DNA of 10,631 nucleotides from Okeania sp. (GTDB taxonomy: Bacteria > Cyanobacteriota > Cyanobacteriia > Cyanobacteriales > Microcoleaceae), in the NCBI RefSeq assembly GCF_035285525.1, contig NZ_JAYKGW010000003.1, positions 1 to 10,631 of the forward strand. The letters run 5' to 3'. The position numbers were made by a program, and so were the translations under genes. The notes under the pieces are model-generated. The model worked only from the letters and a program-made list of their open reading frames with translations, was not told the origin of the DNA and did not search any database. Position 1 is the first letter of the stretch. Each line of letters starts with the position of its first letter. Below, piece by piece: positions 1 to 10,631 of this stretch.

Positions 1-141
1 CGTTATAGTTATTTGCCTTGAAAATTTTGACTATTGACTACTAAGCTGAAAATTTTGAGGAAACTATAACGTTATAGTTATTTGCCTTGAAAATTTTGAC
101 TATTGACTACTAAGCTGAAAATTTTGACGTTATAGATATTT
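1..141. repeat. Tandem direct repeat with a 69-bp period. The 58-bp unit at 1-58 recurs identically at 70-127, an 11-bp linker sits at 59-69, and a truncated third copy lies at 128-141. The array may continue beyond the left edge.
   Basis: Direct comparison shows 1-58 and 70-127 are identical, and 128-141 matches the unit start with 1 mismatch. Each unit contains TGAAAATTTTGA twice (19-30, 47-58) and a tandem TTGACTA heptamer (27-33, 34-40). CGTTATAGTT (1-10) is the reverse complement of AACTATAACG (62-71). Confidence 0.9.
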
Positions 142-153
142 AACTCGTAATAT
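124..153 (+). promoter_or_regulatory. Candidate sigma70-type promoter for the folK operon: TTGACG (124-129), 18-nt spacer, TAATAT (148-153).
   Basis: The hexamers are close to consensus with acceptable spacing, about 120 nt upstream of the folK ATG. The -35 element is created at the junction of repeat copies 2 and 3. This rests on sequence pattern only, in an AT-rich background where such matches are common. Confidence 0.3.
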
Positions 154-274
154 CATGTTCGTTAGTATCATTTGTGTAAAAGTTGGAGAAATATCTACCA
201 TATTTAAAATTTTTTTTCCTTCTCTAACAACTTGTTACTTAAGAATATAAAAACTCAAACGTATCCTTCAAACA

Positions 275-793
275 ATGTCTAATTCTACTAACTTAAACTA
301 CTCAAAAAAAGAGCAAGGCAATGCAGCTATTGGTATGGGTAGCAACTTGGGAGAATCTCTTGATACTCTTAAAAATGCCATTCAAACTTTAGATGAAATT
401 CCTGGCATTAACTTAATTACTTATTCTAATTGGTATAGAACTAAACCTGTAGGTGGTCCAAAACAATCAGACTTTATCAATGGTTGTGCATTATTAAAAG
501 TAGAATTAACTCCCCATAAATTGTTAGAAATTTTATTAGATGTTGAACAAAAATTTAAGCGAGTACGTTTAGAACATTGGGGACCTAGAACCTTAGATTT
601 AGATTTAATATTATACGATGATTTAATATTGGATACCCCTAATCTACAAATACCCCATCCTCGAATGAAAGAAAGAGCTTTTGTACTTGTCCCTTTAGCA
701 GAAATAGCTCCTAATTGGATAGAACCAGTTTCAGGAAAAACTATCGCTAAACTTCAAGAAGAAGTAGAATGTTCTGGAGTATTTCCACTTTAA
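275..793 (+). CDS. folK: 2-amino-4-hydroxy-6-hydroxymethyldihydropteridine diphosphokinase (HPPK)
   Basis: The 172-aa ORF carries the HPPK hallmarks: GSNLG near the N-terminus, YRTKPVGGPKQSDFINGC, WGPRTLDLDLILY and IPHPRMKERAFVLVPLAEI. Confidence 0.93.
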   Translation: MSNSTNLNYSKKEQGNAAIGMGSNLGESLDTLKNAIQTLDEIPGINLITYSNWYRTKPVGGPKQSDFINGCALLKVELTPHKLLEILLDVEQKFKRVRLEHWGPRTLDLDLILYDDLILDTPNLQIPHPRMKERAFVLVPLAEIAPNWIEPVSGKTIAKLQEEVECSGVFPL

Positions 794-823
794 AAAAAGG
801 CAAGTTAAATTAGCAATTTACTT

Positions 824-1543
824 ATGATTAAAAAAGCACTTATTACAGGTTCAGCAGTAGGAATAGGTAGAGCGATCGCTCTCGACTTAGCGAGTAAAGG
901 ATTTGATGTAGCATTTCATTATAGGCGCAGTGGAGAAGCAGCTAATCAAGCAGCTCAAGAGGCAGCTACCTATGGAGTTAAATCTATTGCTTTACAGGCA
1001 GATGTTACTAAACCAGAGGAAGCTAAATCTTTAGTAGAAAATGCTGCTGAAAAACTGGGAGGATTATCTGTTGTAGTTAATAATGTGGGAAACTTTCTCG
1101 AAAAAACAACTAGCCAAATATCCATAGAAGAGTGGCATGAAATGCTTGATTCAAACTTAAATTCTACCTTTTATGTTACTCAAACAAGTATTCCTTACCT
1201 TAAAGCAGCAGGTTGGGGACGTATTGTCAACTTTAGTTTCGCCAGTGCCCAACATCTTAAAGCAGATGACCAACAGACAGCCTATAGAATTGCCAAGACT
1301 GGTATTATAATCTATAGTAAGTCCCTAGCTCAAGAATTAATTAAGGACAAAATTACTGTAAATGTAGTTGCCCCAGGAGCAGCAGAAAATACTATTGGTT
1401 TAGAAGAAACGATTCCTATGCTCCCAACTAAACGGGCTGCAACTTTGCAAGAAGTAAGTCATGTAGTTGGCTTCTTTGTTAGTCCCGAATCAGGTTACAT
1501 TACTGGACAAGTTTTGGAAGTGGCAGGGGGTTGGAGATTATAA
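824..1543 (+). CDS. Short-chain dehydrogenase/reductase (classical SDR, FabG-like). It is a candidate pteridine or side-chain reductase by context only.
   Basis: The protein is 239 aa. It has TGSAVGIGRAIA (TGxxxGxG cofactor loop), HYRRS after beta2 (basic residues typical of NADPH-preferring SDRs), NNVG, and AYRIAK (catalytic YxxxK). It starts 30 nt after the folK stop. Confidence 0.9.
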   Translation: MIKKALITGSAVGIGRAIALDLASKGFDVAFHYRRSGEAANQAAQEAATYGVKSIALQADVTKPEEAKSLVENAAEKLGGLSVVVNNVGNFLEKTTSQISIEEWHEMLDSNLNSTFYVTQTSIPYLKAAGWGRIVNFSFASAQHLKADDQQTAYRIAKTGIIIYSKSLAQELIKDKITVNVVAPGAAENTIGLEETIPMLPTKRAATLQEVSHVVGFFVSPESGYITGQVLEVAGGWRL

Positions 1544-1615
1544 TTGTTTCTGAATTTCCGAGATTATGGTTAAATAAATATGATGGGAATAAGAAAAGAT
1601 TAAAGGAGTGGAAAA

Positions 1616-2524
1616 ATGCTGACTCTAGCAGATATTTGTGAGGTATATAACAAACATCAAAATGATTACAATAACACCCAAGTAGAAGAGTTTACTATTG
1701 GAAATAAAAAGTTTAACTTTAATTCTCAAACTTCTATTTTAGGAATCATTAATCTTTCTACAGAATCTTGGTATAAACCCACTATTTGTTATACTCCAGA
1801 ACAAGCAATTTGCCGTGGTAAAGTATTAACACTTCAAGGTGCCGATGTCATAGATATTGGTACTGAGTCTACTGGCAAAACTACAGCTAGGGTAGATCGG
1901 TTAGAACAAATAAGTCAACTTTTACCTATTCTGAAAACTTTCAGTCAAGAAGGTATATTAACTTCAGTGGAAACTTATTATCCAGAAGTTGCCAGGGAAT
2001 GTTTAAAAGCAGGCGCAAATGTTATCAACTTTTTGGGAACTGAAAATAGCGAAGAAATGTATCAAGCTGTAGCTGATTTTGATGCAGCAATTATTATTTG
2101 TTATGTAGAAGGAAAACACGCTAGAGATGTAGGAGAATTTGATTTTGATTCAGGTAGAGATATGATCGATGTGCTATACGATTATTTTGCCAAAGAGATA
2201 GAAATAGCAACTAAAATAGGAGTGAGAAAAATTTTTATTGACCCAGCAGTGGGTGTAGGATACGCAAATTTTTACTACCAATACAAAAATATATCAAATA
2301 GAATGAGATATCAAATTGATACTCTTTTAAATGGTTTTAGACTAAGAAAATTAGGGTTTCCTGTTTTTAATCAAATACCTACAGCTTTAGAAATTTTTGG
2401 AGAAGAGTTCAGAAGTTCTCAAGTTTTTACGGCAGTTTTTGCAGCACTAGGAAAAAATGATATGGTTAGAACCCATGAAGTTGCTAAAGTAAAATCTCTT
2501 TTTGAAACTATGAGTTGGTTGTAA
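1616..2524 (+). CDS. Dihydropteroate synthase-like pterin-binding protein (divergent FolP homologue)
   Basis: The protein is 302 aa with an AAGGAG Shine-Dalgarno at 1603-1608, 7 nt before the ATG. DHPS-like blocks are LGIINLSTESW (compare GILNVTPDSF), GADVIDIGTEST (compare IDVGGESTRPG), SVETYYPEV (compare SVDTSKPEV), FIDPAVGVGY (compare LDPGFGFGK) and VRTHEV (compare IRVHDV). Confidence 0.85.
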   Translation: MLTLADICEVYNKHQNDYNNTQVEEFTIGNKKFNFNSQTSILGIINLSTESWYKPTICYTPEQAICRGKVLTLQGADVIDIGTESTGKTTARVDRLEQISQLLPILKTFSQEGILTSVETYYPEVARECLKAGANVINFLGTENSEEMYQAVADFDAAIIICYVEGKHARDVGEFDFDSGRDMIDVLYDYFAKEIEIATKIGVRKIFIDPAVGVGYANFYYQYKNISNRMRYQIDTLLNGFRLRKLGFPVFNQIPTALEIFGEEFRSSQVFTAVFAALGKNDMVRTHEVAKVKSLFETMSWL

Positions 2525-2544
2525 TAGATATTTCCAAAAAAAGA

Positions 2545-2633
2545 GGGAACAGGAAATAGGGGAAAGTTGAAAAAATTTACTCTCTGTTTCCTGTTAAATA
2601 TTCTCTCTCTCAACTAGAAAATTTATTTTCCAC
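2545..2633. repeat. Copy of a dispersed repeat with an internal 9-bp inverted repeat. Part of it (2588-2633) recurs in inverted orientation at 7125-7170.
   Basis: AACAGGAAA (2548-2556) pairs with TTTCCTGTT (2587-2595) across a 30-nt loop. The reverse complement of 2588-2633 aligns with 7125-7170, with a core of 21 positions carrying 1 mismatch plus an AACAGGAA block at identical spacing. Confidence 0.6.
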
Positions 2634-2657
2634 AACCACTTAGTCTAAATATTCAAG

Positions 2658-3380
2658 ATGATGGTAAAAAAAGCACTTGTGACAGGTTCAGCAGTGGGAA
2701 TAGGTAGAGCGATCGCCCTCGACTTAGCAAGTAAAGGATTTGATATAGCCTTTCACTATAACAAAAGTGCAGAAGCAGCCAACCAAGCTAGTCAAAAAGC
2801 AGCTACTCAAGGTGTGAAAGCGATCGCTCTGCAAGCTGATATTACTAAACCAGAGCCAGCTAGATATTTAGTAGACAGTGCAGCGGAAAAACTGGGAGGT
2901 TTATCAGTAGTAGTTAATAATGTAGGCAACTATCTAGGAAAACCTCTCATTCAGGTATCTATAGAAGAGTGGCATGACGTTATTAATTCTAACCTTAACT
3001 CCAATTTCTATGTCACTAAAGCAGCACTTCCCTATCTGAAAGCAGCTAATGGAGCAAGGATAGTAAACTTTGCTTGTGCTAATGCCCAAAATGTGGTAGC
3101 ACGGAAAAATAATGCAGCTTACATAATTGCCAAAACTGGTATTATTATCTATACTAAGTCCTTAGCAGTTGAGCTAATTAAAGATAAAATTACTGTTAAT
3201 GTAGTATCGCCAGGAATAGCAGAAAATTCTTTGGATTTAGAAAAAATGATTCCTAAAATCCCAGCCCAACGACCTGCAAGTTTCGGAGAAATTAATAATG
3301 CAGTTTGGTTTTTTATTAACCCAAATTCTAATTATATTACAGGACAAGTATTAGAAGTATCGGGTGGTTGGCTTTTATAG
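2658..3380 (+). CDS. Short-chain dehydrogenase/reductase, a close paralogue of the 824-1543 product
   Basis: The protein is 240 aa and has the same motif set: TGSAVGIGRAIALDLASKGFD, HYNKS, NNVG, AYIIAK and ITGQVLEVSGGW. It aligns to the first SDR end to end without gaps apart from one extra N-terminal residue, and roughly two thirds or more of residues are identical by eye. Confidence 0.9.
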   Translation: MMVKKALVTGSAVGIGRAIALDLASKGFDIAFHYNKSAEAANQASQKAATQGVKAIALQADITKPEPARYLVDSAAEKLGGLSVVVNNVGNYLGKPLIQVSIEEWHDVINSNLNSNFYVTKAALPYLKAANGARIVNFACANAQNVVARKNNAAYIIAKTGIIIYTKSLAVELIKDKITVNVVSPGIAENSLDLEKMIPKIPAQRPASFGEINNAVWFFINPNSNYITGQVLEVSGGWLL

Positions 3381-3859
3381 TTAAGGTTTGCACAAAAAAA
3401 GCAGAGTTTGCGAAGTGTCTGCAAGCTGGGAAGACAGAAACAGGAGAAGGAATAATTGTTCTTTAATTTCTCTACCATTTTTTCCCGAAAATCCCAATTT
3501 TTGGGTAGTTATTATATTTGTAAAAGGTAAACTTTTTCAGTATAAAAAAAGATTATAACCATTAGATATCTCCAGAAAAGAGTGAGTAGGGAGAAATAAT
3601 TAATTATTATACCGTATTATATTTCTCCAATTCCTGACTTCATATCCTAAAAACCCTTACCTTTACCAATAGAAATCTCCAAAAATAAAAAATCAAACCA
3701 ATTATCGTACAGAAATTATCAATTCTTTCTTCCTATAGCCCATTGCCTATTGCCTCTTTTCTAGAAATGTCTAATATACCAAATGGGTTCTATATATTTG
3801 ACCTAGGTAAGATATTTTATGGTAGTTTAGTAAAAGTAAAACAAAAAAGCTGATTTCCT

Positions 3860-5020
3860 ATGAATGTAACTTCCGATGATATTAAAGCTGTATACGAGGA
3901 AAGCAATGCAACTCAACATTATTTGTCTCCAAATCGTAAAGACAATGTAAAAGTTTACTGGGAAGAAGCTTTTTCTCGTTTCGTTTTCAAACAAGCAATT
4001 CTTTCTATTGATACTCCTGCTCGCGAAAAGTTGCGTGTACTTGATGTCGGAGCTGGAATAGGAGACGGATACACTTTATTAAGCGACCTGTTGGCACAAG
4101 AACCTAGTTTGGATAAGTGCAACCTAGATTATCTAGGTATTGATATTAGTCCAGAAATGGTGGAAACTGCCAACAACTTATACAAAAATAACACGAACGT
4201 TCGCTTTGAGCAAGCCGACATTCGTAAACAAATTCCTGAAAGTCCTTTTGATTTATATCTTTCCTGTGGAGTTCCTTATTCTCATCTTACCCATGAAGAG
4301 TTAGAAACAGTCTTAAAGATACTATTTGAACGTATTCTTAAAAATCAATCTCCCTGTGCAGTTGTGATAGACGTTTTAGGAAGATACAGTATTGAATGGC
4401 AACCGCACTGGAGTGAGAGTCGGTGGAACTATAATATGAGTTTTTTCAAGAGTGAGGGCGAAGCTAAACCTACATTAATGAGTTTCTATTCTCACGAACA
4501 TCTAGAAAAAATAATTCGGAATGCTGCAAGTGAAGTTAATTGTCCAATTAAAAATCTAGCTTTCTTCGATCGCTCAATCGTAGTTGGTCGCCATACTTCA
4601 ACAGGAGCTTTTAATCGAGAACTTCCTAAATATCGCAATCTAGTTAATTCTTTACTCGATCCAAATCAAGAAACAGATTTGAATCAACTGATTCTGCGAG
4701 TAGAATCAGGAGATGCTCCAGAATATATTATTAAGTTCTTCCATCAGTTTTCTGGTTGGTGGAATACTATAATCGCTGAAGCAGCAGAATTGCTCAATGA
4801 ATCCTTAGAAGTAAATCGGGTGCAACTACCTGCCAATATCGAAAGCTTAGATGTACTGATTAAGCAAAATTTAGCTAATTCTGTTTTAACTAATGATAGA
4901 CAAAGAATAGAGTTAGCTGTTGCCAAAAGATTACAGCAACTTGAACAAACTTGTGAACCAGGGTACGGCGTTGGTCACGATCTATTCGGAGTTGTTTGGT
5001 TAGATACAAGAAATTCCTAA
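3860..5020 (+). CDS. Class I SAM-dependent methyltransferase with a long uncharacterised C-terminal extension
   Basis: The protein is 386 aa. It has LRVLDVGAGIGDG (motif I, GxGxG), YLGIDIS (acidic end of beta2), VRFEQADIR and FDLYLSCGV (motif IV-like). I recognise no motif in the roughly 200 residues after the Rossmann core. Confidence 0.85.
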   Translation: MNVTSDDIKAVYEESNATQHYLSPNRKDNVKVYWEEAFSRFVFKQAILSIDTPAREKLRVLDVGAGIGDGYTLLSDLLAQEPSLDKCNLDYLGIDISPEMVETANNLYKNNTNVRFEQADIRKQIPESPFDLYLSCGVPYSHLTHEELETVLKILFERILKNQSPCAVVIDVLGRYSIEWQPHWSESRWNYNMSFFKSEGEAKPTLMSFYSHEHLEKIIRNAASEVNCPIKNLAFFDRSIVVGRHTSTGAFNRELPKYRNLVNSLLDPNQETDLNQLILRVESGDAPEYIIKFFHQFSGWWNTIIAEAAELLNESLEVNRVQLPANIESLDVLIKQNLANSVLTNDRQRIELAVAKRLQQLEQTCEPGYGVGHDLFGVVWLDTRNS

Positions 5021-5064
5021 ACTCTGGATATGTATTTTTTCATTTTTGTAGTAACTTAAAAAAT

Positions 5065-5757
5065 ATGACATTTTTAATTACAAATGACGACGGTATCGAT
5101 GCTACAGGTATCCGAACCCTACACGCTGCCTTGTCTGAAGTCACAACCAAACCTAGTGTTATAGTTGGTCCCAAGCACCATCTATCAGGGTGTAGTCATC
5201 ATATTAATATCCGTACAGGAATCGCCGTAGAGCATCGCTCAGATTCGGAGATTTCTGTAGAAAGTACCCCAGCAGACTGCGTGCGTTTAGGTGTTAATTA
5301 TTTATATAAGGATATTGATTTTGTGCTATCGGGTATTAATCAAGGTTGTAATTTAGGTTCGGATATTTATCCGTCGGGAACGATAGCGGCAGCACGAGAG
5401 GCAACTATACATAGGATTCCAGCGATCGCCTTTTCCCATTTCCGAAGAGCTGAATGGGAAATAGACTGGGAAAGAGCAAAGAGATGGACTATTCAAGTTC
5501 TGAATATGTTGTTAGAAAAACCGATAGAACCAGGAACTTTTTGGTCGATTAATTTTCCACATCTGACATCGGATATGAACGAGCCAAACATTGTTTTTGC
5601 TCCCTGTTGCACTCGCCCACTGCTAACTGAGTTTGTTTTGGAGGGATCGTCCTATCGGTACATAGGTGACGACATTAACCGCAAGTCTGACCCCGGTACG
5701 GATGTTGATGTCTGCTTATCAGGTAATATTGCCATCTCTAAAATTCAGTTGTGGTGA
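5065..5757 (+). CDS. surE: SurE-family 5'/3'-nucleotidase/phosphatase
   Basis: FLITNDDGIDATGIRTL is the N-terminal metal-binding NDDG motif, and SGINQGCNLGSDIYPSGTIAAAREA is the SurE signature block. I chose the internal ATG at 5065 (MTFLITNDDG) because SurE proteins begin just before the NDDG strand, and because the 4996 start overlaps the methyltransferase. Confidence 0.85.
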   Translation: MTFLITNDDGIDATGIRTLHAALSEVTTKPSVIVGPKHHLSGCSHHINIRTGIAVEHRSDSEISVESTPADCVRLGVNYLYKDIDFVLSGINQGCNLGSDIYPSGTIAAAREATIHRIPAIAFSHFRRAEWEIDWERAKRWTIQVLNMLLEKPIEPGTFWSINFPHLTSDMNEPNIVFAPCCTRPLLTEFVLEGSSYRYIGDDINRKSDPGTDVDVCLSGNIAISKIQLW

Positions 5758-5827
5758 TGCTAGTTTGATGTTTGGTGTCAAAAATGGAAGCATCTAAACT
5801 ACATCAACGCTCTTTATATCATAACTT

Positions 5828-6068
5828 ATATCATGTCCGGATAATTAGTGATACAGGATTTACGCAAGTGAACCCAGAAACCCGGTTTCTCGTAGACATC
5901 TATTGCTCAAAACAAGGATTTATCGTAGAAACCGGGTTCCTCCCGTGTAAGTCCTATGATAAAAAGACTTTCTCCTGTTCTCTCCTGACTTCTGTAGAAC
6001 GGCCGTTCGCCCCTACAACTAACTCGTGACTTCTCCCTTATTTATATATGTTCATCCGGACATGATAT
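5828..6068. mobile_element. MITE-like non-coding module of 241 bp bounded by a 15-bp perfect terminal inverted repeat
   Basis: ATATCATGTCCGGAT (5828-5842) is the exact reverse complement of ATCCGGACATGATAT (6054-6068). The interior holds two copies of the GAAACCCGGTTTCTCGTAG-type palindromic repeat (5877-5896 and 5924-5940, inverted relative to each other). I could not identify a transposase or a clear target-site duplication. Confidence 0.4.
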
Positions 6069-6144
6069 TACGCAAAGTCTTAGATAATCAGGATTTAAGC
6101 AAAGGTACTATATATAGTTTGTCGGTGCGTTACGCTACCCCTTT

Positions 6145-6274
6145 ATATCAAATCCGCTGGCTTTGGAGAATAAAATTATAGCATCAGAAAAGAGCGAAAA
6201 GCCTAGTCTGTAGAGGGTTTGGAGACCAAACCCCTACTACGAGCGAATTATACCGATACTACCGGATTTGATAT
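6145..6274. repeat. Second inverted-repeat-bounded module (130 bp), with termini related to those of the 5828-6068 module
   Basis: ATATCAAATCCG (6145-6156) is the exact reverse complement of CGGATTTGATAT (6263-6274). These termini share ATATCAnnTCCG with the neighbouring module. An internal hairpin sits at GTAGAGGGTTTGG...CCAAACCCCTAC (about 6210-6237). Confidence 0.4.
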
Positions 6275-6531
6275 TACATGTCGTCTAGGGAAGCACACCG
6301 CTTACCAAGAATAAATCAACTTCAGTCTTCTTTCTTAGTTTCTTCTTTCTTCGTTACTTTGAAATTTTACTTACAGCACTTTTCACTCTTGATGAACCAA
6401 ATCGATCGGCATAACCAAACCCTTGTAGGGACGTTGCATAACAAAAATGCGTTTCATGTCGCGCAGCGATACGTTCCTACTGTGGTTCACTAAAATGAAA
6501 ACCGCTGTAACTAATTATTGAGGATATAGTA

Positions 6532-6984
6532 ATGACATTAAATGAAAAAAAAGAGGAAAAATCTCAAACTCTCAAAAATGAATCTAACTCAGATAGTTGG
6601 ATAATAGGTAAAGAATTTAGATTTGAAGCTGCTCATCAACTACCTAATCACGATGGGAAATGTGCCAGATTACATGGCCATTCTTGGCGGGGTGTTATTT
6701 ATATTTTTGGTAATAAGTTGATAACTTCTGGAGCCAAACAGGGTATGATTATGGATTATGGAGATATTAAAAAATATATTAAACCCCTCCTTGATAATTA
6801 TTTAGATCATTATCATTTAAACGAAACTACAGGTTTAACTAATCCTACCAGTGAGGCGATCGCTAAATGGATTTATGAACAATTAGAAGATAAAATTCCA
6901 GGACTTGTAGCAGTTAGAATTGATGAAACTTGTACCAGTCAATGTATTTATTCAAAAGGAAAAATTGATTTTTTAATGTTTTGA
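6532..6984 (+). CDS. queD: 6-carboxy-5,6,7,8-tetrahydropterin synthase / 6-pyruvoyltetrahydropterin synthase family protein (QueD/PTPS)
   Basis: The protein is 150 aa. It has FRFEAAHQLPNHDGKCARLHGHSW (the CxxxHGH zinc/catalytic motif of the PTPS fold), GMIMDYGDIK and LDHYHLNE. Confidence 0.88.
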   Translation: MTLNEKKEEKSQTLKNESNSDSWIIGKEFRFEAAHQLPNHDGKCARLHGHSWRGVIYIFGNKLITSGAKQGMIMDYGDIKKYIKPLLDNYLDHYHLNETTGLTNPTSEAIAKWIYEQLEDKIPGLVAVRIDETCTSQCIYSKGKIDFLMF

Positions 6985-7124
6985 GGTAATAGAGAATAGG
7001 TTCATTAATTAATAATGAATAATTGATAACTACTTCTCGTTAAAATCATCAGATTTAATATCAGGAAATCTTATTTATTTTTATCAATTATCCATTGGTA
7101 AATTTTTCAATATAATAAGTAGTC

Positions 7125-7170
7125 GTGCAAAATAAATTTCCTAGTTGAGGGAGGAAATGGGGAACAGGAA
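7125..7170. repeat. Inverted copy of the 2588-2633 dispersed repeat
   Basis: GTGCAAAATAAATTTCCTAGTTGAG...AACAGGAA aligns with the reverse complement of 2588-2633 (GTGGAAAATAAATTTTCTAGTTGAG...AACAGGAA). Confidence 0.6.
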
Positions 7171-7417
7171 GAAAGAATTGATAACTTCTGGATCGAATTA
7201 GAGATATATAATAGTAATATGTAATTAATTTTTTATAAGCACTTATCTTCTGAGTTTTTTAATTAGGAGTTGCTGATTAAATCTCAAAGGATTAATATAT
7301 AAAATTTTTAGACTTCTTATACCTACAAAAGTACCTATTTTTTGTCTGAAAATGGTAAAATTTTGACTCTAATCAAATTAAAATTATTAGTGCAATAGTA
7401 TATAGAAATTTAGTGAA

Positions 7418-8380
7418 ATGAAAAAAACCATAGGAATTATTGGAGGAGGACCTGCTGGAATGTCTTGCGCACTCTGGTTAAAGTATTTAGGTTTTTCTCC
7501 AATTATTATTGAAAGAAAACAAAAACTGGGAGGTTTACAACAGTTAAGTAATTTTCAAAATGTCTGGTATTTAGGATTAATTGAAAAAACTGGATATGAA
7601 ATTGCTGAACAGTTTCGTCAACATATTAAAATAGAAGAAATTTCTACATTATTAGGTTCTCAACTTAAGAGTATTGTCAAAGATGGGGATAATTTTCAGA
7701 TATTTACTGAAGCAAAAGAAATTACAGCTCAAGGTTTAGTTATTGCTACAGGACAAAGAATTAAAGGATATGAAAGTATCAAGTTTATTGAGGGTAGTCA
7801 CGAACTTTTATCATCACAAGAAATATTCTTCGATCCTGGTACTACTCCTCTACTTACACCCCAGATGAATGATAAAATAGTTGCCATTGTTGGAGGAGGT
7901 GATAATGGGTTAGTAACAGCAATACGTTTCTCAGAAACTGCTAAACATATTCACCTATTTGTTCGTTCGCAAATGTGTGGTTTTAAGGTTAACCAAAAAA
8001 CAATTCACGATAAAATTGAAGCTGGTAAAATAACATTGCATCAACTAACAATTATTAATAGATTTGCCGTTCAGAATAATCAAATTTATATCACTTTTAG
8101 AGATGGAGAAAAACCAGAAGAAAAATTAGCATTTGACTCTCTATGTTTGAGAATTGGGTTTGCTCCAAATATAGAAGATATAGTGCAAATTTTTAATGAA
8201 GGAAACTTAGGCAATATTCAACTTAATGAAAAAGGATATATTTCTACAGATCAATTTTTACGGACTTCTATTCCTAACATTTATGTTGCTGGAGATGTAG
8301 CAAATCCCAGAGATCCCTGTGTAGCAACAGCAGTAGCTCAAGGTGCTATTGCTGCTAGAAGTATACAAGAAGATTTATAA
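7418..8380 (+). CDS. FAD/NAD(P)-binding oxidoreductase with a thioredoxin-reductase-like fold but no redox-active CxxC
   Basis: The protein is 320 aa. It has IGIIGGGPAGMSCA (FAD GxGxxG), VAIVGGGDNG (NAD(P)H GxGxxG) and IYVAGDVAN (C-terminal FAD motif). There is no Cys pair in the segment preceding the second GxGxxG, where TrxR carries CATC. Confidence 0.88.
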   Translation: MKKTIGIIGGGPAGMSCALWLKYLGFSPIIIERKQKLGGLQQLSNFQNVWYLGLIEKTGYEIAEQFRQHIKIEEISTLLGSQLKSIVKDGDNFQIFTEAKEITAQGLVIATGQRIKGYESIKFIEGSHELLSSQEIFFDPGTTPLLTPQMNDKIVAIVGGGDNGLVTAIRFSETAKHIHLFVRSQMCGFKVNQKTIHDKIEAGKITLHQLTIINRFAVQNNQIYITFRDGEKPEEKLAFDSLCLRIGFAPNIEDIVQIFNEGNLGNIQLNEKGYISTDQFLRTSIPNIYVAGDVANPRDPCVATAVAQGAIAARSIQEDL

Positions 8381-8392
8381 TCAGAAATTACG

Positions 8393-8643
8393 CAAAGAAA
8401 TCCGGTTTCTCGTAGTAGAAAGAAATCTGGTTTCTCGTAGTAGAAAGAAACCCGGTTTCTCGTAGAAAACGGGTTTCTGGGTTCTGATGAGGATAAAAAT
8501 TTACTGATTAATAATTATAAATAGTTTTTTAGAAAGAAACCCAGTTTCTCGTAGAAAGAAACCGGGTTTCTCCTAGAAAAAAACCCGGTTTCTAGGTTCC
8601 GATGAGGATAAAAATTTACTGATTAATAATTATAAATAGTTTT
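8393..8643. repeat. Composite repeat block. It holds three 25-bp tandem units of AGAAAGAAAYCYGGTTTCTCGTAGT and further degenerate palindromic copies, all nested in a ~115-bp duplication (8472-8528 is repeated at 8587-8643).
   Basis: GGTTTCTCGTAG occurs at 8404, 8429 and 8454 (25-bp period), with related copies at 8543, 8564 and 8587. The 57-bp segment GGTTTCTGGGTTCTGATGAGGATAAAAATTTACTGATTAATAATTATAAATAGTTTT recurs 115 bp downstream with 2 mismatches. Confidence 0.85.
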
Positions 8644-8694
8644 AATTATTAATTATCAATTATTCATTATTCCCTATTCCCTAAAAATATAAAA

Positions 8695-9324
8695 ATGAGT
8701 TTAACCAAAGAATTTAAAAGTAGATATCACGAGTCGCGGATGCAATATATGGCAACAGGAAAATCTCCCACCTGTTCAGTCATTTCTTCTCAAACACCTT
8801 ACTGGAAAAATAATCGACTTATTTTTCCTTTTTTAGTTGATGACTGGGAACATTTTTATTACGTTGACTTTCCTAAAAAATTTAAAAATACAGAAAATAC
8901 CTACCCATCTATTTTAATAGGAATAGCAATGGCAGAAATTTATCGCCTTTGTGAAATATGTACTCCTAAAATAGTAAAAGTACCTTGGTATAGTTGTCTT
9001 CAATGGGAAATAGATTGGTGGAATGAAGATATTTATTGGTATCTTCAGCAAAAGTTTTATCTGGAAAAATGGGATTGGGAAAAAATGCCTCCCATAGAGT
9101 TTTCTCCAAATTCAAATTATACAGAAAACTCTGCTTTTCCTTCTGTTAATGATACTTATCTTCTTGCAGTTAGTGGTGGTAAAGAAAGTACATTTGCTTT
9201 TGAGTGGATGCAGCAAGCAAACCTGCCCATAGAAGCATTTACTTTACATAATGCGGGAGGAATATTAGGTAATAAATGGCTGGAAAAATTCCCAGTATTT
9301 GACTATATTAAAAATCAAACTTAA
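8695..9324 (+). CDS. N-terminal part of a PP-loop (adenine nucleotide alpha-hydrolase superfamily) protein. It is probably the upstream half of a frameshifted gene.
   Basis: The ORF is 209 aa. A Trp-rich N-terminal region of unknown function is followed by LLAVSGGKEST (9172-9189 encodes SGGKES, a variant of the SGGxDS PP-loop). The ORF stops only 44 residues after the ATP-binding loop. Confidence 0.6.
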   Translation: MSLTKEFKSRYHESRMQYMATGKSPTCSVISSQTPYWKNNRLIFPFLVDDWEHFYYVDFPKKFKNTENTYPSILIGIAMAEIYRLCEICTPKIVKVPWYSCLQWEIDWWNEDIYWYLQQKFYLEKWDWEKMPPIEFSPNSNYTENSAFPSVNDTYLLAVSGGKESTFAFEWMQQANLPIEAFTLHNAGGILGNKWLEKFPVFDYIKNQT

Positions 9325-10081
9325 TCTATGGGAAATACAAGCTCATACCCAGGAAGAACCGGCTGAACATTTTGCTTATGAAGGTGTTCGTAATGATCCT
9401 ACTATTACTAATGCTCTGTTCATTATGATGATAATTGCTATGCAGCAAGGTCACCGATTTTTGATATTAGCAAATGATAAGAGTTCCAATGAATCTAATG
9501 CTACATATCAGGGGCGAGAAGTTAATCATCAAAGTGCTAAAGGAGCTGCTTATATAGAACGTTTTAATGATTTTTTAAAGCGCAAAGGTTTGCCTTTTGG
9601 TTATGTGAGTATTTGCGAAGAAGTTTATTCTATAGGTACGGTTCATCAGCTATCTTTATGGAACAAAAATATCTTAAATAACCTTACTTCTTGTAATGAA
9701 GCACAGTGGTCTCCAGAAGATGTGCGATGGTGTTGTAACTGTCCAAAATGTGCTTTTTCTTATGCTTTAATTGAATCTATGACGGATTACAGTTTTGCTT
9801 CTCAAGCAGTAGGAAAAGATTTATTTAGTCTGGCAGAACTTGAGAATATTTGGAAAGGTTTATTTGACCCAAATACGGAGAAACCATTTGAGTGTGTTGG
9901 TGAAAAACGTGAAACTTTAATGGCTTTAGTTAAATGCAAAAAACAACGTCTTAAAAATGGAGAACCTTTGGGTATTCTTGTGGAAATACCTGATGTTGAT
10001 TTTGATAATTCTTTTCTCAAAATATCTCCTCCTCAAAATATTCCAATTGAACATCAAGAAAAACTAAATTCTGTTAAGTAG
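9299..10081 (+). CDS. C-terminal part of the same PP-loop-type protein, with a Cys cluster. It lies in the +1 frame relative to 8695-9324.
   Basis: The ORF is 260 aa. Its only start is a TTG inside the upstream ORF, and the frame is open from 9269. It contains LILANDKSSNE, NHQSAKG and WCCNCPKC (9731-9751), which resembles the C-terminal metal-binding Cys clusters of some PP-loop enzymes. It would supply the rest of the nucleotide-binding fold missing from the upstream ORF. Confidence 0.6.
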   Translation: MTILKIKLNLWEIQAHTQEEPAEHFAYEGVRNDPTITNALFIMMIIAMQQGHRFLILANDKSSNESNATYQGREVNHQSAKGAAYIERFNDFLKRKGLPFGYVSICEEVYSIGTVHQLSLWNKNILNNLTSCNEAQWSPEDVRWCCNCPKCAFSYALIESMTDYSFASQAVGKDLFSLAELENIWKGLFDPNTEKPFECVGEKRETLMALVKCKKQRLKNGEPLGILVEIPDVDFDNSFLKISPPQNIPIEHQEKLNSVK

Positions 10082-10239
10082 GGAATAGGAAATGTAGTTA
10101 GTCTGGTAGTTGGTTGAAATACTTGAAGTTTTGGATTATAAAAAAAGGTAAAATTTTGCCATAAGAAGAATTATACGAAAAAGGTTAATGCAATATTTTA
10201 TATAATCTTCGGTTGAATAATTACACTTAGGAGGAGGAG

Positions 10240-10631
10240 GTGAGTCATCAAAATTGGCAATAGTTGCTGATCGAAAAAGTCGTTTATACATTTCCTTAAG
10301 CACCCCGGCACAGGGGGTGAGCCATCAAAATTGGCAATAGTTGCTTACAGAAAAAGTCGTTTATACATTTCCTGAAGCACCCCGACAGAGGAGGTGAGCC
10401 ATCAAAATTGGCAATAGTTGCTTACAGAAAAAGTCGTTTATACATTTCCTGAAGCACCCCAACAGAGGAGGTGAGTCATCAAAATTGGCAATAGTTGCTT
10501 ACAGAAAAAGTCGTTTATACATTTCCTTAAGCACCCCGACAAAGGAGGTGAGTCGTGAAAATTGGCAATAGTTGCTTACAGAAAAAGTCGTTTATACATT
10601 TCCTTAAGCACCCCGACAAAGGAGGTGAGTC
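10240..10631. repeat. Non-coding tandem array with a 77-bp period: five complete units (starts 10240, 10317, 10394, 10471, 10548) and the start of a sixth, continuing past the right edge
   Basis: GTGAG(T/C)C recurs at exact 77-bp intervals. The units differ only at unit positions 6, 8, 10, 30-33, 58, 68-69, 72 and 76. The period is not a multiple of 3, and no ORF of 60 aa or more lies in the array. Confidence 0.95.

Follow-up and report, generated by a model that had tools for sequence, protein, structure and literature searches.

The stretch of DNA discussed here (the window) is 10,631 nucleotides long and covers positions 1 to 10,631 of the forward strand of contig NZ_JAYKGW010000003.1 from the cyanobacterium Okeania sp. 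(assembly GCF_035285525.1). The third gene in a run on one strand, an open reading frame at 1616-2524 (+) that begins with ATG and specifies 302 amino acids, encodes a relative of dihydropteroate synthase (DHPS), the target of sulfonamides and the textbook signature enzyme of folate synthesis. An earlier reading of this DNA (the original prediction), made from the letters alone, held that the product is a paralogue which either still binds a pterin diphosphate and joins it to an acceptor other than p-aminobenzoate (pABA), or has a non-catalytic pterin-binding role. Sequence comparison now places the protein in a distinct and uncharacterised DHPS-fold family that crosses phyla and goes by the name DHPS in databases, and suggests that its product is probably a pterin compound other than folate.

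Two genes of the same orientation precede the DHPS-like gene. The first (275-793, +) encodes FolK (HPPK; PF01288, 139.9 bits; TIGR01498, 145.6 bits against a cut-off of 54.1), whose product is 6-hydroxymethyl-7,8-dihydropterin diphosphate (DHPPP). The second (824-1543, +) encodes a short-chain dehydrogenase/reductase (SDR) of the TmpR type (NF012208, 379.6 bits against a cut-off of 325), annotated as a dihydropteridine or dihydrofolate reductase, and ends 72 bp before the start of the DHPS-like gene. A paralogue of this reductase follows at 2658-3380 (+; NF012208, 370.1 bits, same cut-off), about 75% identical to the first copy in nucleotides. The closest solved structures are SDRs of the FabG type. 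Both window reductases carry the N-terminal sequence TGSAVGIG (TGxxxGxG), not TGxxxRxG, which is said to mark the pteridine reductases PTR1, FolM and PruA (PMC13259868). A consensus scan of positions 1-4000 found one terminator-like site, a hairpin at 3484-3505 (+) located 3' of the second reductase gene, which is not above shuffle expectation; it is possible that the folK-SDR-DHPS-like-SDR transcription unit ends there. Upstream of the DHPS-like gene no riboswitch or other RNA element was found at E <= 1, apart from a chance match to a small RNA.

The product of 1616-2524 is predicted to be a TIM-barrel of the DHPS type, within the Pterin_bind superfamily. It matches PF00809 with 92.6 bits against a cut-off of 25.5, over profile positions 2-176 of 244, the match ending before the region of the GxSRKS block. 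The AlphaFold2 (AF2) model (pLDDT 83.8, pTM 0.87) is an eight-stranded barrel, confident in the barrel itself and weak in loops 1, 2, 5, 6 and 7, and its top Foldseek matches are all DHPS (TM 0.65-0.78, probability 1.00). Against two orthologues of the Trichodesmium lineage dN/dS is 0.19 and 0.25, and the gene is therefore under purifying selection.

We aligned the protein and its relatives with MAFFT and compared 29 members of the family with 14 canonical DHPS proteins by profile-profile alignment with hhalign, taking residue numbers from an E. coli FolP sequence identical to that of PDB 1AJ0. The fold-defining blocks on which the original prediction relied (the Asn of ILNVT, the Asp of LDPG, the Arg and His of RVHDV) are indeed kept: N22, N115, D185, R255 and H257 of E. 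coli correspond to N46, N138, D209, R285 and H287 of the window protein, and T62 and R235 are also retained. Every substitution that it listed was recovered by both methods, namely ESTRPG to ESTGKT, SVDT to SVET, INDI to INFL, GFGFGK to AVGVGY and TPDSF to STESW; the individual replacements are F28>W52, R63>G87, P64>K88, D96>E119, S98>Y121, D116>F139 and D258>E288. In INFL the pterin-binding Asn is retained, the change being confined to D116>F139. The GxSRKS block of loop 7, which contains K221, has no counterpart, just as had been noticed by eye: hhalign leaves a gap of six residues there, and an ungapped register would put an Ala at K221. Two points need adjustment. The loop-2 Arg is lost as claimed, but the loop keeps basic residues close by, K88 being common in the sub-branch to which the window protein belongs (P1, see below) and R92 being present in 23 of the 29 members. 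Likewise the change to STESW is real, but its Glu (E50) is peculiar to the lineage of the window, at least 90% of close relatives having an Asp there.

Across the 29 members, which come from four phyla, N46, E84, E119, Y121, N138, R170, D209, R285, H287 and E288 are invariant, and the window protein carries all 22 residues that are invariant across phyla. R170 and Q98 are new invariant residues in comparison with canonical DHPS. Absent throughout the family are the canonical R63, P64, D116, K192 and the S219-K221 segment. Since all full-length relatives repeat the Glu for D96, the Tyr for S98, the Thr for I117, the lack of SRK and the Glu for D258, and since the gene is under purifying selection, the pattern goes well beyond what chance would give, and the substitutions are family traits and not decay.

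In solved DHPS structures an Asp/Asn/Asp/Lys set recognises the pterin and the Arg of R-x-H (R255) stacks on it; the loop-2 Arg touches the pABA carboxylate or the beta-phosphate; and alpha-loop 7 holds both pABA and pterin by its Lys and Ser, the pABA-binding elements being loops 1 and 2 and alpha-loop 7 (PMC2994781). Read against these structures, the residue pattern suggests that most of the half-site for pterin and diphosphate has been kept and that the half-site for pABA has been lost. Of the residues that hydrogen-bond the pterin (D96, N115, D185, K221) or stack on it (R255), three persist as N138, D209 and R285, D96 is a Glu in all members and K221 has no counterpart. At the diphosphate or anion site N46, R285 and H287 are invariant; R63 is a Gly here and variable in the family, with K88 and/or R92 one to five residues away in a flexible loop. 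As for the pABA pocket (Phe28, Thr62-Arg63-Pro64, Phe190, Ser-Arg-Lys-Ser), Phe28 has become W52, Arg63-Pro64 has become Gly-Lys, Phe190 has become V214 and Ser-Arg-Lys-Ser is missing.

The protein is 87% identical to one from Trichodesmium erythraeum IMS101 annotated "dihydropteroate synthase" and 90% identical to one at a locus of a cyanobacterial metagenome-assembled genome. Among 1.84 billion cluster representatives, which were searched exhaustively, 51 clusters reached E <= 1e-30, and beyond them came weaker matches to ordinary DHPS; a profile search gave 2,119 proteins at E <= 1e-20. Hosts of the family include many filamentous cyanobacteria, Verrucomicrobia (44-49% identity), Streptomyces (36-37%), Kineosporiaceae, SAR324 and the chlorarachniophyte alga Amorphochlora; within cyanobacteria its distribution is patchy. 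All public annotations of the family read dihydropteroate synthase. The signature that defines the family, to which the window protein belongs, consists of N-L-S-x-D-S, a Glu in place of D96 with x-Y behind it, N-x-T/L following strand 4, R170 in loop 5, a strand 7 with no SRK behind it, and R-T-H-E.

When 90 loci and 100 representatives were scored with one hidden Markov model (HMM) of the family and another of canonical DHPS, the scores were bimodal, with no true intermediates. The window protein scores 439.9 on the family HMM versus 157.6 on the canonical one; its sequence was among the 29 used to build the former, and members that were not (P0123, P0129, P0155 and P0161) separate equally well. 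A phylogeny had been suggested as a check of the original prediction, and a neighbor-joining (NJ) tree of family and canonical DHPS does set the family apart, with 97.5% bootstrap support for its clade and 94% for the canonical one. Beside these two clades there is a third DHPS-fold group (P0185, P0191, P0203, P0210, P0211, P0213, P0254 and P0225), with N-E-S in loop 1, Q-S-S-H-Y/F in loop 2 (no R63), D-W after strand 3 and the Lys of P-R-K kept. It has near-equal scores on the two HMMs, branches between both clades and may be another uncharacterised subfamily.

Two sub-branches can be told apart within the cyanobacterial part of the family. P2 represents the family consensus, with NLSxDSWYRES in loop 1, DPGLGFYY and PVCHALPHAFE. 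P1, the type found in the window, has WY(K/N)xx in loop 1 and three features specific to it: DPAVGVGY (hence the AVGVGY above), a 4-residue insert and PVFNQIPTALE. The Phe that is V214 in the window protein is retained in P2. P1 is monophyletic (100% bootstrap) and sister to cyanobacterial P2 (99% for the two together, NJ), and is therefore a rapidly evolving copy that was derived from the ancestral P2 type within cyanobacteria; it sits on a long branch. Genera with P1 usually have P2 too. T. erythraeum IMS101 has the order SDR-P1-SDR-P2 in tandem, so that the same SDR copy as the second one of the window stands before P2, a second DHPS-like gene. Lyngbya PCC 8106 has P1 and P2 in one supercluster, and Roseofilum has two P1 copies with an SDR gene between them. 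The window contains P1 alone; P2 was sought in it and no remnant was found.

Could such a protein be a mere pterin binder, acting as a carrier, as a sensor or as a regulatory partner of a P2 paralogue or of the SDR? The loss of K221 would fit, and the suggestion is most plausible for the degenerate P1, which is without the family loop motifs and whose genera mostly have a P2 copy as well. The mycobacterial FolP2, which does not complement a folP mutant, provides a precedent (PMC1971073). However, N46, R285, H287, D209 and E84 are invariant, which would be needless in a protein that only binds; dN/dS is about 0.2; and in three loci (L005, L085 of Nodularia, and L086) P1 is the only copy, amid the same set of enzymes. 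Given these residues and the enzyme operon setting, the non-catalytic option of the original prediction has become less likely, and we now regard it as improbable.

Comparison with known members of the fold shows where the protein stands. Its best PDB relatives (E = 2e-22) are FolP enzymes (EC 2.5.1.15; 1AJ0, 1TWS/3TYD from B. anthracis and 6PZ2 from C. difficile), with which it shares the barrel, the residues N22, T62, N115, D185, R235, R255 and H257, and the proximity of FolK and FolB genes. It differs from them in its low identity (20-28%) and separate clade, in lacking R63/P64, D116, K192 and S219-R220-K221-S222, in the fixed changes D96>E, S98>Y and D258>E, and in being paired with an SDR and tailoring enzymes, not with FolC or Pab genes. 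Against the TIGR01496 equivalog model the window protein scores 102.7 bits and other members 114.3, 126.5 and 147.2 bits, so that all four tested fall under the cut-off of 162.6. In contrast, the FolP of Prochlorococcus (L054), which is at most 45% identical to any representative, scores 313.8 bits, about twice the cut-off.

These scores bear on a more conventional explanation, according to which the family is a divergent but true DHPS of the folate pathway that uses pABA, or that makes dihydrofolate from p-aminobenzoyl-glutamate, the SDR being a dihydrofolate reductase (DHFR) and the cluster a module for folate synthesis or salvage. FolB, FolK and a Nudix hydrolase lie alongside, as they often do with folP; the NF012208 SDR is annotated with DHFR activity and an actinobacterial member lies 3' of a DHFR-like RibD_C gene; T62 is kept, GxGF is kept in P2 and K88 or R92 is near the position of R63, where the DHPS of Francisella has a Lys (PMC2994781). 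The uniform public annotations point the same way. Nevertheless we consider this explanation unlikely. Apart from the scores, no member has the alpha-loop-7 Ser and Lys that serve the pABA carboxylate and the pterin; patchiness in cyanobacteria together with tandem duplication is unlike a housekeeping gene; the family shares its clusters with enzymes that play no part in folate synthesis, namely methyltransferases, a betaine-type dioxygenase and a MurL-like ATPase; and it occurs in Streptomyces, which has a canonical folP.

Scoring of the 90 loci with the HMMs detected canonical FolP in no family locus; it was seen in Prochlorococcus and in one Verrucomicrobiia genome (L063). These occurrences, the scattered distribution of the family with its duplications, and the folP known from Streptomyces lead us to infer that canonical FolP probably coexists with the family in the same cyanobacterial genomes.

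Three other kinds of DHPS-fold enzyme were considered. The mycobacterial FolP2 (Rv1207; 2VP8) is a comparable case, an additional protein with the DHPS fold that carries the annotation DHPS and does not replace FolP. Membership in this type was rejected: 2VP8 is matched at E = 3.8e-12 by the window protein and at 7.5e-11 by a Streptomyces member, versus 2e-22 and 1.4e-27 for canonical DHPS, and the gene neighbourhoods differ. One representative (P0208) that was tried as a FolP2 proved to be of another divergent type. Sul1-Sul4 are DHPS variants with a remodelled pABA site, but they are still true pABA-using enzymes, and the window protein reaches only 38-64 bits against their cut-offs of 475-600. 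The methanopterin-pathway enzyme of the MJ0301 type couples DHPPP to the arylamine beta-RFA-P, with methylation and reduction steps later on, and is a precedent for a DHPS fold that combines DHPPP with another acceptor. The window protein does not belong to this type either (TIGR00284, 24.4 bits versus a cut-off of 256.65); it has no RFA-P synthase or methanopterin genes nearby, and the hosts of its family are cyanobacteria, Verrucomicrobia and Actinobacteria.

The gene neighbourhood of the family was surveyed within 10 kb in 40 loci, among which L001 and L002 represent one and the same region of IMS101. The genome collection contributed 18 cyanobacterial loci that include upstream sequence, and in every one of them the gene directly upstream of the DHPS-like gene encodes a TmpR-type SDR (NF012208 above cut-off), on the same strand and at a distance of 16-379 bp; one uncultured bacterium (L030) has the same arrangement. 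In one genome of the actinobacterial Kineosporiaceae the upstream gene, 8 bp away, encodes a DHFR-like RibD_C reductase. The other recurring neighbours are FolK (17 of the 40 loci), a methyltransferase that is MT33-like and not EgtD (15), a Nudix hydrolase (14), FolB (11), a flavoprotein mostly encoded just downstream of the DHPS-like gene (10), a 6-pyruvoyltetrahydropterin synthase (PTPS) homologue (7) and a MurL-like ATPase (6).

In the window the run of genes on the same strand continues. A SAM-dependent methyltransferase of 386 aa (3860-5020, +; matches to Methyltransf_25/31/12/11) has homologues of 42-43% identity, which L008 and Nodularia (L085) encode beside their DHPS-like genes. It is followed by a SurE-type 5'/3'-nucleotidase or phosphatase (5065-5757, +; NF001493, 278.5 bits against a cut-off of 230), for which the listed reading frame opens at TTG 4996; the likely start is ATG 5065, the NF001493 match beginning at residue 22 of the frame. 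Its role, we infer, is to remove the last phosphate of dihydroneopterin phosphate, and in Nodularia a HAD phosphatase occupies the equivalent place. A PTPS/QueD-family enzyme with a CxxxHGH motif is encoded at 6532-6984 (+; PF01242, 115.4 bits; TIGR03367, 99.2 bits against a cut-off of 89.25). It is above the QueD cut-off, yet there is no QueC or QueE nearby. The window also has no FolB gene, for which reason the enzyme might be a bypass of FolB of the PTPS-III type; alternatively, it might make 6-carboxy-pterin. The gene at 7418-8380 (+) encodes a thioredoxin-reductase-like flavoprotein (Pyr_redox_2, 108.6 bits; TIGR01292, 121.9 bits, under its cut-off of 343), whose best PDB matches are thioredoxin reductases and whose sequence has no CxxC redox motif.

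Taken together, the Nudix hydrolase, the phosphatase (of the SurE type in the window, of the HAD type in Nodularia), FolB or PTPS, and FolK would cover the whole of the pterin branch that leads from dihydroneopterin triphosphate to DHPPP. It is chiefly because the recurring genes form such a branch that DHPPP seems the likely substrate of the DHPS-like protein.

The MT33-like methyltransferase is the sole neighbour that is conserved across phyla, the enzymes of Lyngbya and Verrucomicrobia being 41-43% identical. A link to ergothioneine was examined and rejected: the recurring enzyme scores 51-81 bits against the EgtD cut-off of 290.9, and true EgtD (398-405 bits), together with EgtB and EgtC, is encoded only in L005 and L018. 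In six Verrucomicrobia loci the MT33-like gene and the DHPS-like gene are convergent neighbours, the former closing a cox/SCO1/DUF420 operon. The order of that operon is CtaA-CtaB-COX1-COX3-COX2-SCO1-DUF420-MT33 (L087:8920-9897, L088:8936-9916, L020, L022, L024 and L026), and the MT33-like gene overlaps the DUF420 gene, which puts an EgtD-like enzyme beside genes for copper and haem-a assembly. Streptomyces neighbourhoods showed no conserved partner.

Some cyanobacterial clusters add further methyltransferases, an aspartate decarboxylase and a dioxygenase that resembles gamma-butyrobetaine dioxygenase, trimethyllysine dioxygenase (TMLD) and TmpA. The latter enzymes have the TauD fold (L089:4082-5218, L001:6985-7971 and L006) and score 245 bits for TmpA, 219 for gamma-butyrobetaine dioxygenase and 184 for trimethyllysine dioxygenase, in each case under the cut-off. 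In IMS101 and Okeania an aspartate 1-decarboxylase gene stands beside them. Since PF00809 also takes in methyltetrahydrofolate methyltransferases (MeTr/AcsE, MetH), whose domains too are without the DHPS Lys, these betaine-type dioxygenases and the EgtD-like N-methyltransferase could be taken as signs of a methyl-tetrahydropterin methyltransferase module that operates in trimethylammonium metabolism and makes no use of a pterin diphosphate. This we regard as very improbable. The neighbours of the protein in sequence and fold are all DHPS, and no NCBIfam model for MeTr or MetH matched it at E <= 0.01; the diphosphate motifs specific to DHPS, N..DS and R-x-H, are invariant; no corrinoid protein was found in the annotated neighbourhoods; and FolK co-occurs in 17 of the 40 loci.

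A different connection comes from Amorphochlora amoebiformis, in which a DHPS-like domain of the P2 type is fused to pterin-4a-carbinolamine dehydratase (PCD) with an intact HHP motif (P0138 / P0284). The fusion is present in the genome and in the transcriptome, and it ties the family to the chemistry of tetrahydropterin cofactors. Genes for PCD or for a hydroxylase were sought in the bacterial family loci and none was found.

What reaction might the family catalyse? The suggestion that we favour, with a probability of roughly one half, is that of a DHPPP-dependent alkyl-transferase whose acceptor is not pABA and whose product is then reduced by the SDR. DHPPP made by the adjacent FolK would be bound in the barrel as in DHPS, and its diphosphate would be expelled by means of Asn46 (Mg/PPi), Arg285 and His287, all of them retained. 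The pterin-6-methyl cation would then be passed to a nucleophile other than p-aminobenzoate, because the family has replaced loops 1, 2 and 7, from which DHPS forms its pABA pocket; the new nucleophile would be held by loops 1, 2, 5 and 7, which are rebuilt and at the same time conserved in the family. The TmpR-type SDR encoded upstream would bring the 7,8-dihydro product to the tetrahydro level, and the methyltransferases, flavoprotein and MurL-like ATPase of the cluster would probably tailor it further into a non-folate pterin that may serve as a cofactor, a pigment or a signal. The P1 copy of the window may have shifted its acceptor or work together with P2. The first option of the original prediction is partly supported: the protein belongs to a distinct DHPS-fold family, with the residues that stack on the pterin and bind the diphosphate kept, pABA elements rebuilt and genes that would supply DHPPP close by.

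Several considerations weigh against this suggestion. The protein lacks K221, which in DHPS hydrogen-bonds the pterin, and has the longer Glu in place of D96, so that binding or ionisation of DHPPP may differ or fail. P1 has lost the loop-1 'YRES' and loop-7 'CHALPH' motifs that are conserved in the family, and for this reason it could be less active than P2 or different from it. Neither FolK nor an SDR is encoded beside the gene in Verrucomicrobia and Streptomyces, and no gene that would obviously make an alternative acceptor was identified. The presence of canonical FolP in the same cyanobacterial genomes is only probable, and the evidence is all computational.

It is also conceivable that there is no acceptor. 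The protein would then be a diphosphate lyase that yields an exocyclic-methylene or quinonoid intermediate, which the SDR would reduce to 6-methyl-dihydropterin and 6-methyl-tetrahydropterin, a cofactor of the hydroxylase type. Such a route would account for the retention of the pterin and diphosphate residues alongside the loss of the whole acceptor pocket, for the obligate pairing with a reductase and for the gene standing alone in Verrucomicrobia; the Amorphochlora fusion and the annotation of the SDR as a dihydropteridine reductase both point to a recycled tetrahydropterin cofactor. We give this possibility little credence, as the rebuilt loops are highly conserved ('YRES', 'CHALPHAF', R170), which suggests a bound ligand, and as the bacterial loci contain neither an aromatic amino-acid hydroxylase gene nor a PCD gene. 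To our knowledge the reaction has no precedent in the DHPS fold.

Returning to the transfer of DHPPP to an acceptor, one may speculate on the nature of the acceptor. The methyltransferase that resembles EgtD without being one is conserved across phyla as a neighbour, dioxygenases of the gamma-butyrobetaine type recur, and the pocket has lost cationic and gained aromatic residues (W52, Y121, F139, Y163 and Y216). These features hint at an acceptor that is derived from an amino acid and is probably N-methylated or cationic. The DHPS-like protein would in that case perform the committed step of an undescribed pterin-conjugate pathway of filamentous cyanobacteria, Verrucomicrobia and some algae, and the end product could be a new folate-like cofactor or a natural antifolate, with the SDR, which is of the trimethoprim-resistance type, as a self-resistant DHFR. 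In this specific form the proposal is rather doubtful.

More than 2,000 database proteins named dihydropteroate synthase are affected by these considerations. Because the four members tested all fail the curated threshold and are without pABA-binding elements, these genes probably mislead predictions from genomes, both of the capacity for folate synthesis and of the targets of sulfonamides. If another acceptor is indeed used, it would be only the third acceptor class known for the DHPS fold, after pABA and the methanopterin precursor, and an undescribed pterin metabolite would be expected in organisms of ecological importance, namely Trichodesmium, Nostocales that form blooms, Verrucomicrobia of soils and chlorarachniophyte algae. 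Large pterin pools, the function of which is poorly understood, are known from cyanobacteria (PMC3546692). Full-text literature searches for the DHPS-like family, for paralogues of FolP in cyanobacteria, for an association of pterin with EgtD-like genes and for the TmpR SDR brought up nothing relevant. The conserved cluster provides a gene set that is directly testable by heterologous expression.

The remaining features of the window are a split gene and several repeats. The MurL-like PP-loop ATPase gene (8695-10081, +; SGGKES and C..CxxCxxC motifs, the latter QueC-like; NF041275 MurL, 71.9 bits, under its cut-off of 700) is split into two overlapping reading frames, 8695-9324 and 9299-10081, by a frameshift beside a run of five A near 9300-9325, and is either a pseudogene or the result of a sequencing error. 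No sequence relative of its product was found in PDB and no Pfam family matched it. Intact orthologues of 467-496 aa (74-77% identity), Symploca and Lyngbya among them, are encoded directly 3' of P2-type genes (L009, L014, L015, L018 and L089), and IMS101 keeps only a 600-bp remnant (L001:14413-15017). In the first 150 or so nucleotides of the window there is a direct repeat, not reported by TRF, in which a reading-frame translation of about 18 residues occurs twice. Between the flavoprotein and MurL-like genes, at 8394-8643, lie repeats of 22-25 nt and 115 nt with hairpin-like GAAACC(C)GGTTTC cores. Finally, a 77-nt tandem repeat at 10235-10631, with 5.2 copies and 95% matches, reaches the end of the window.

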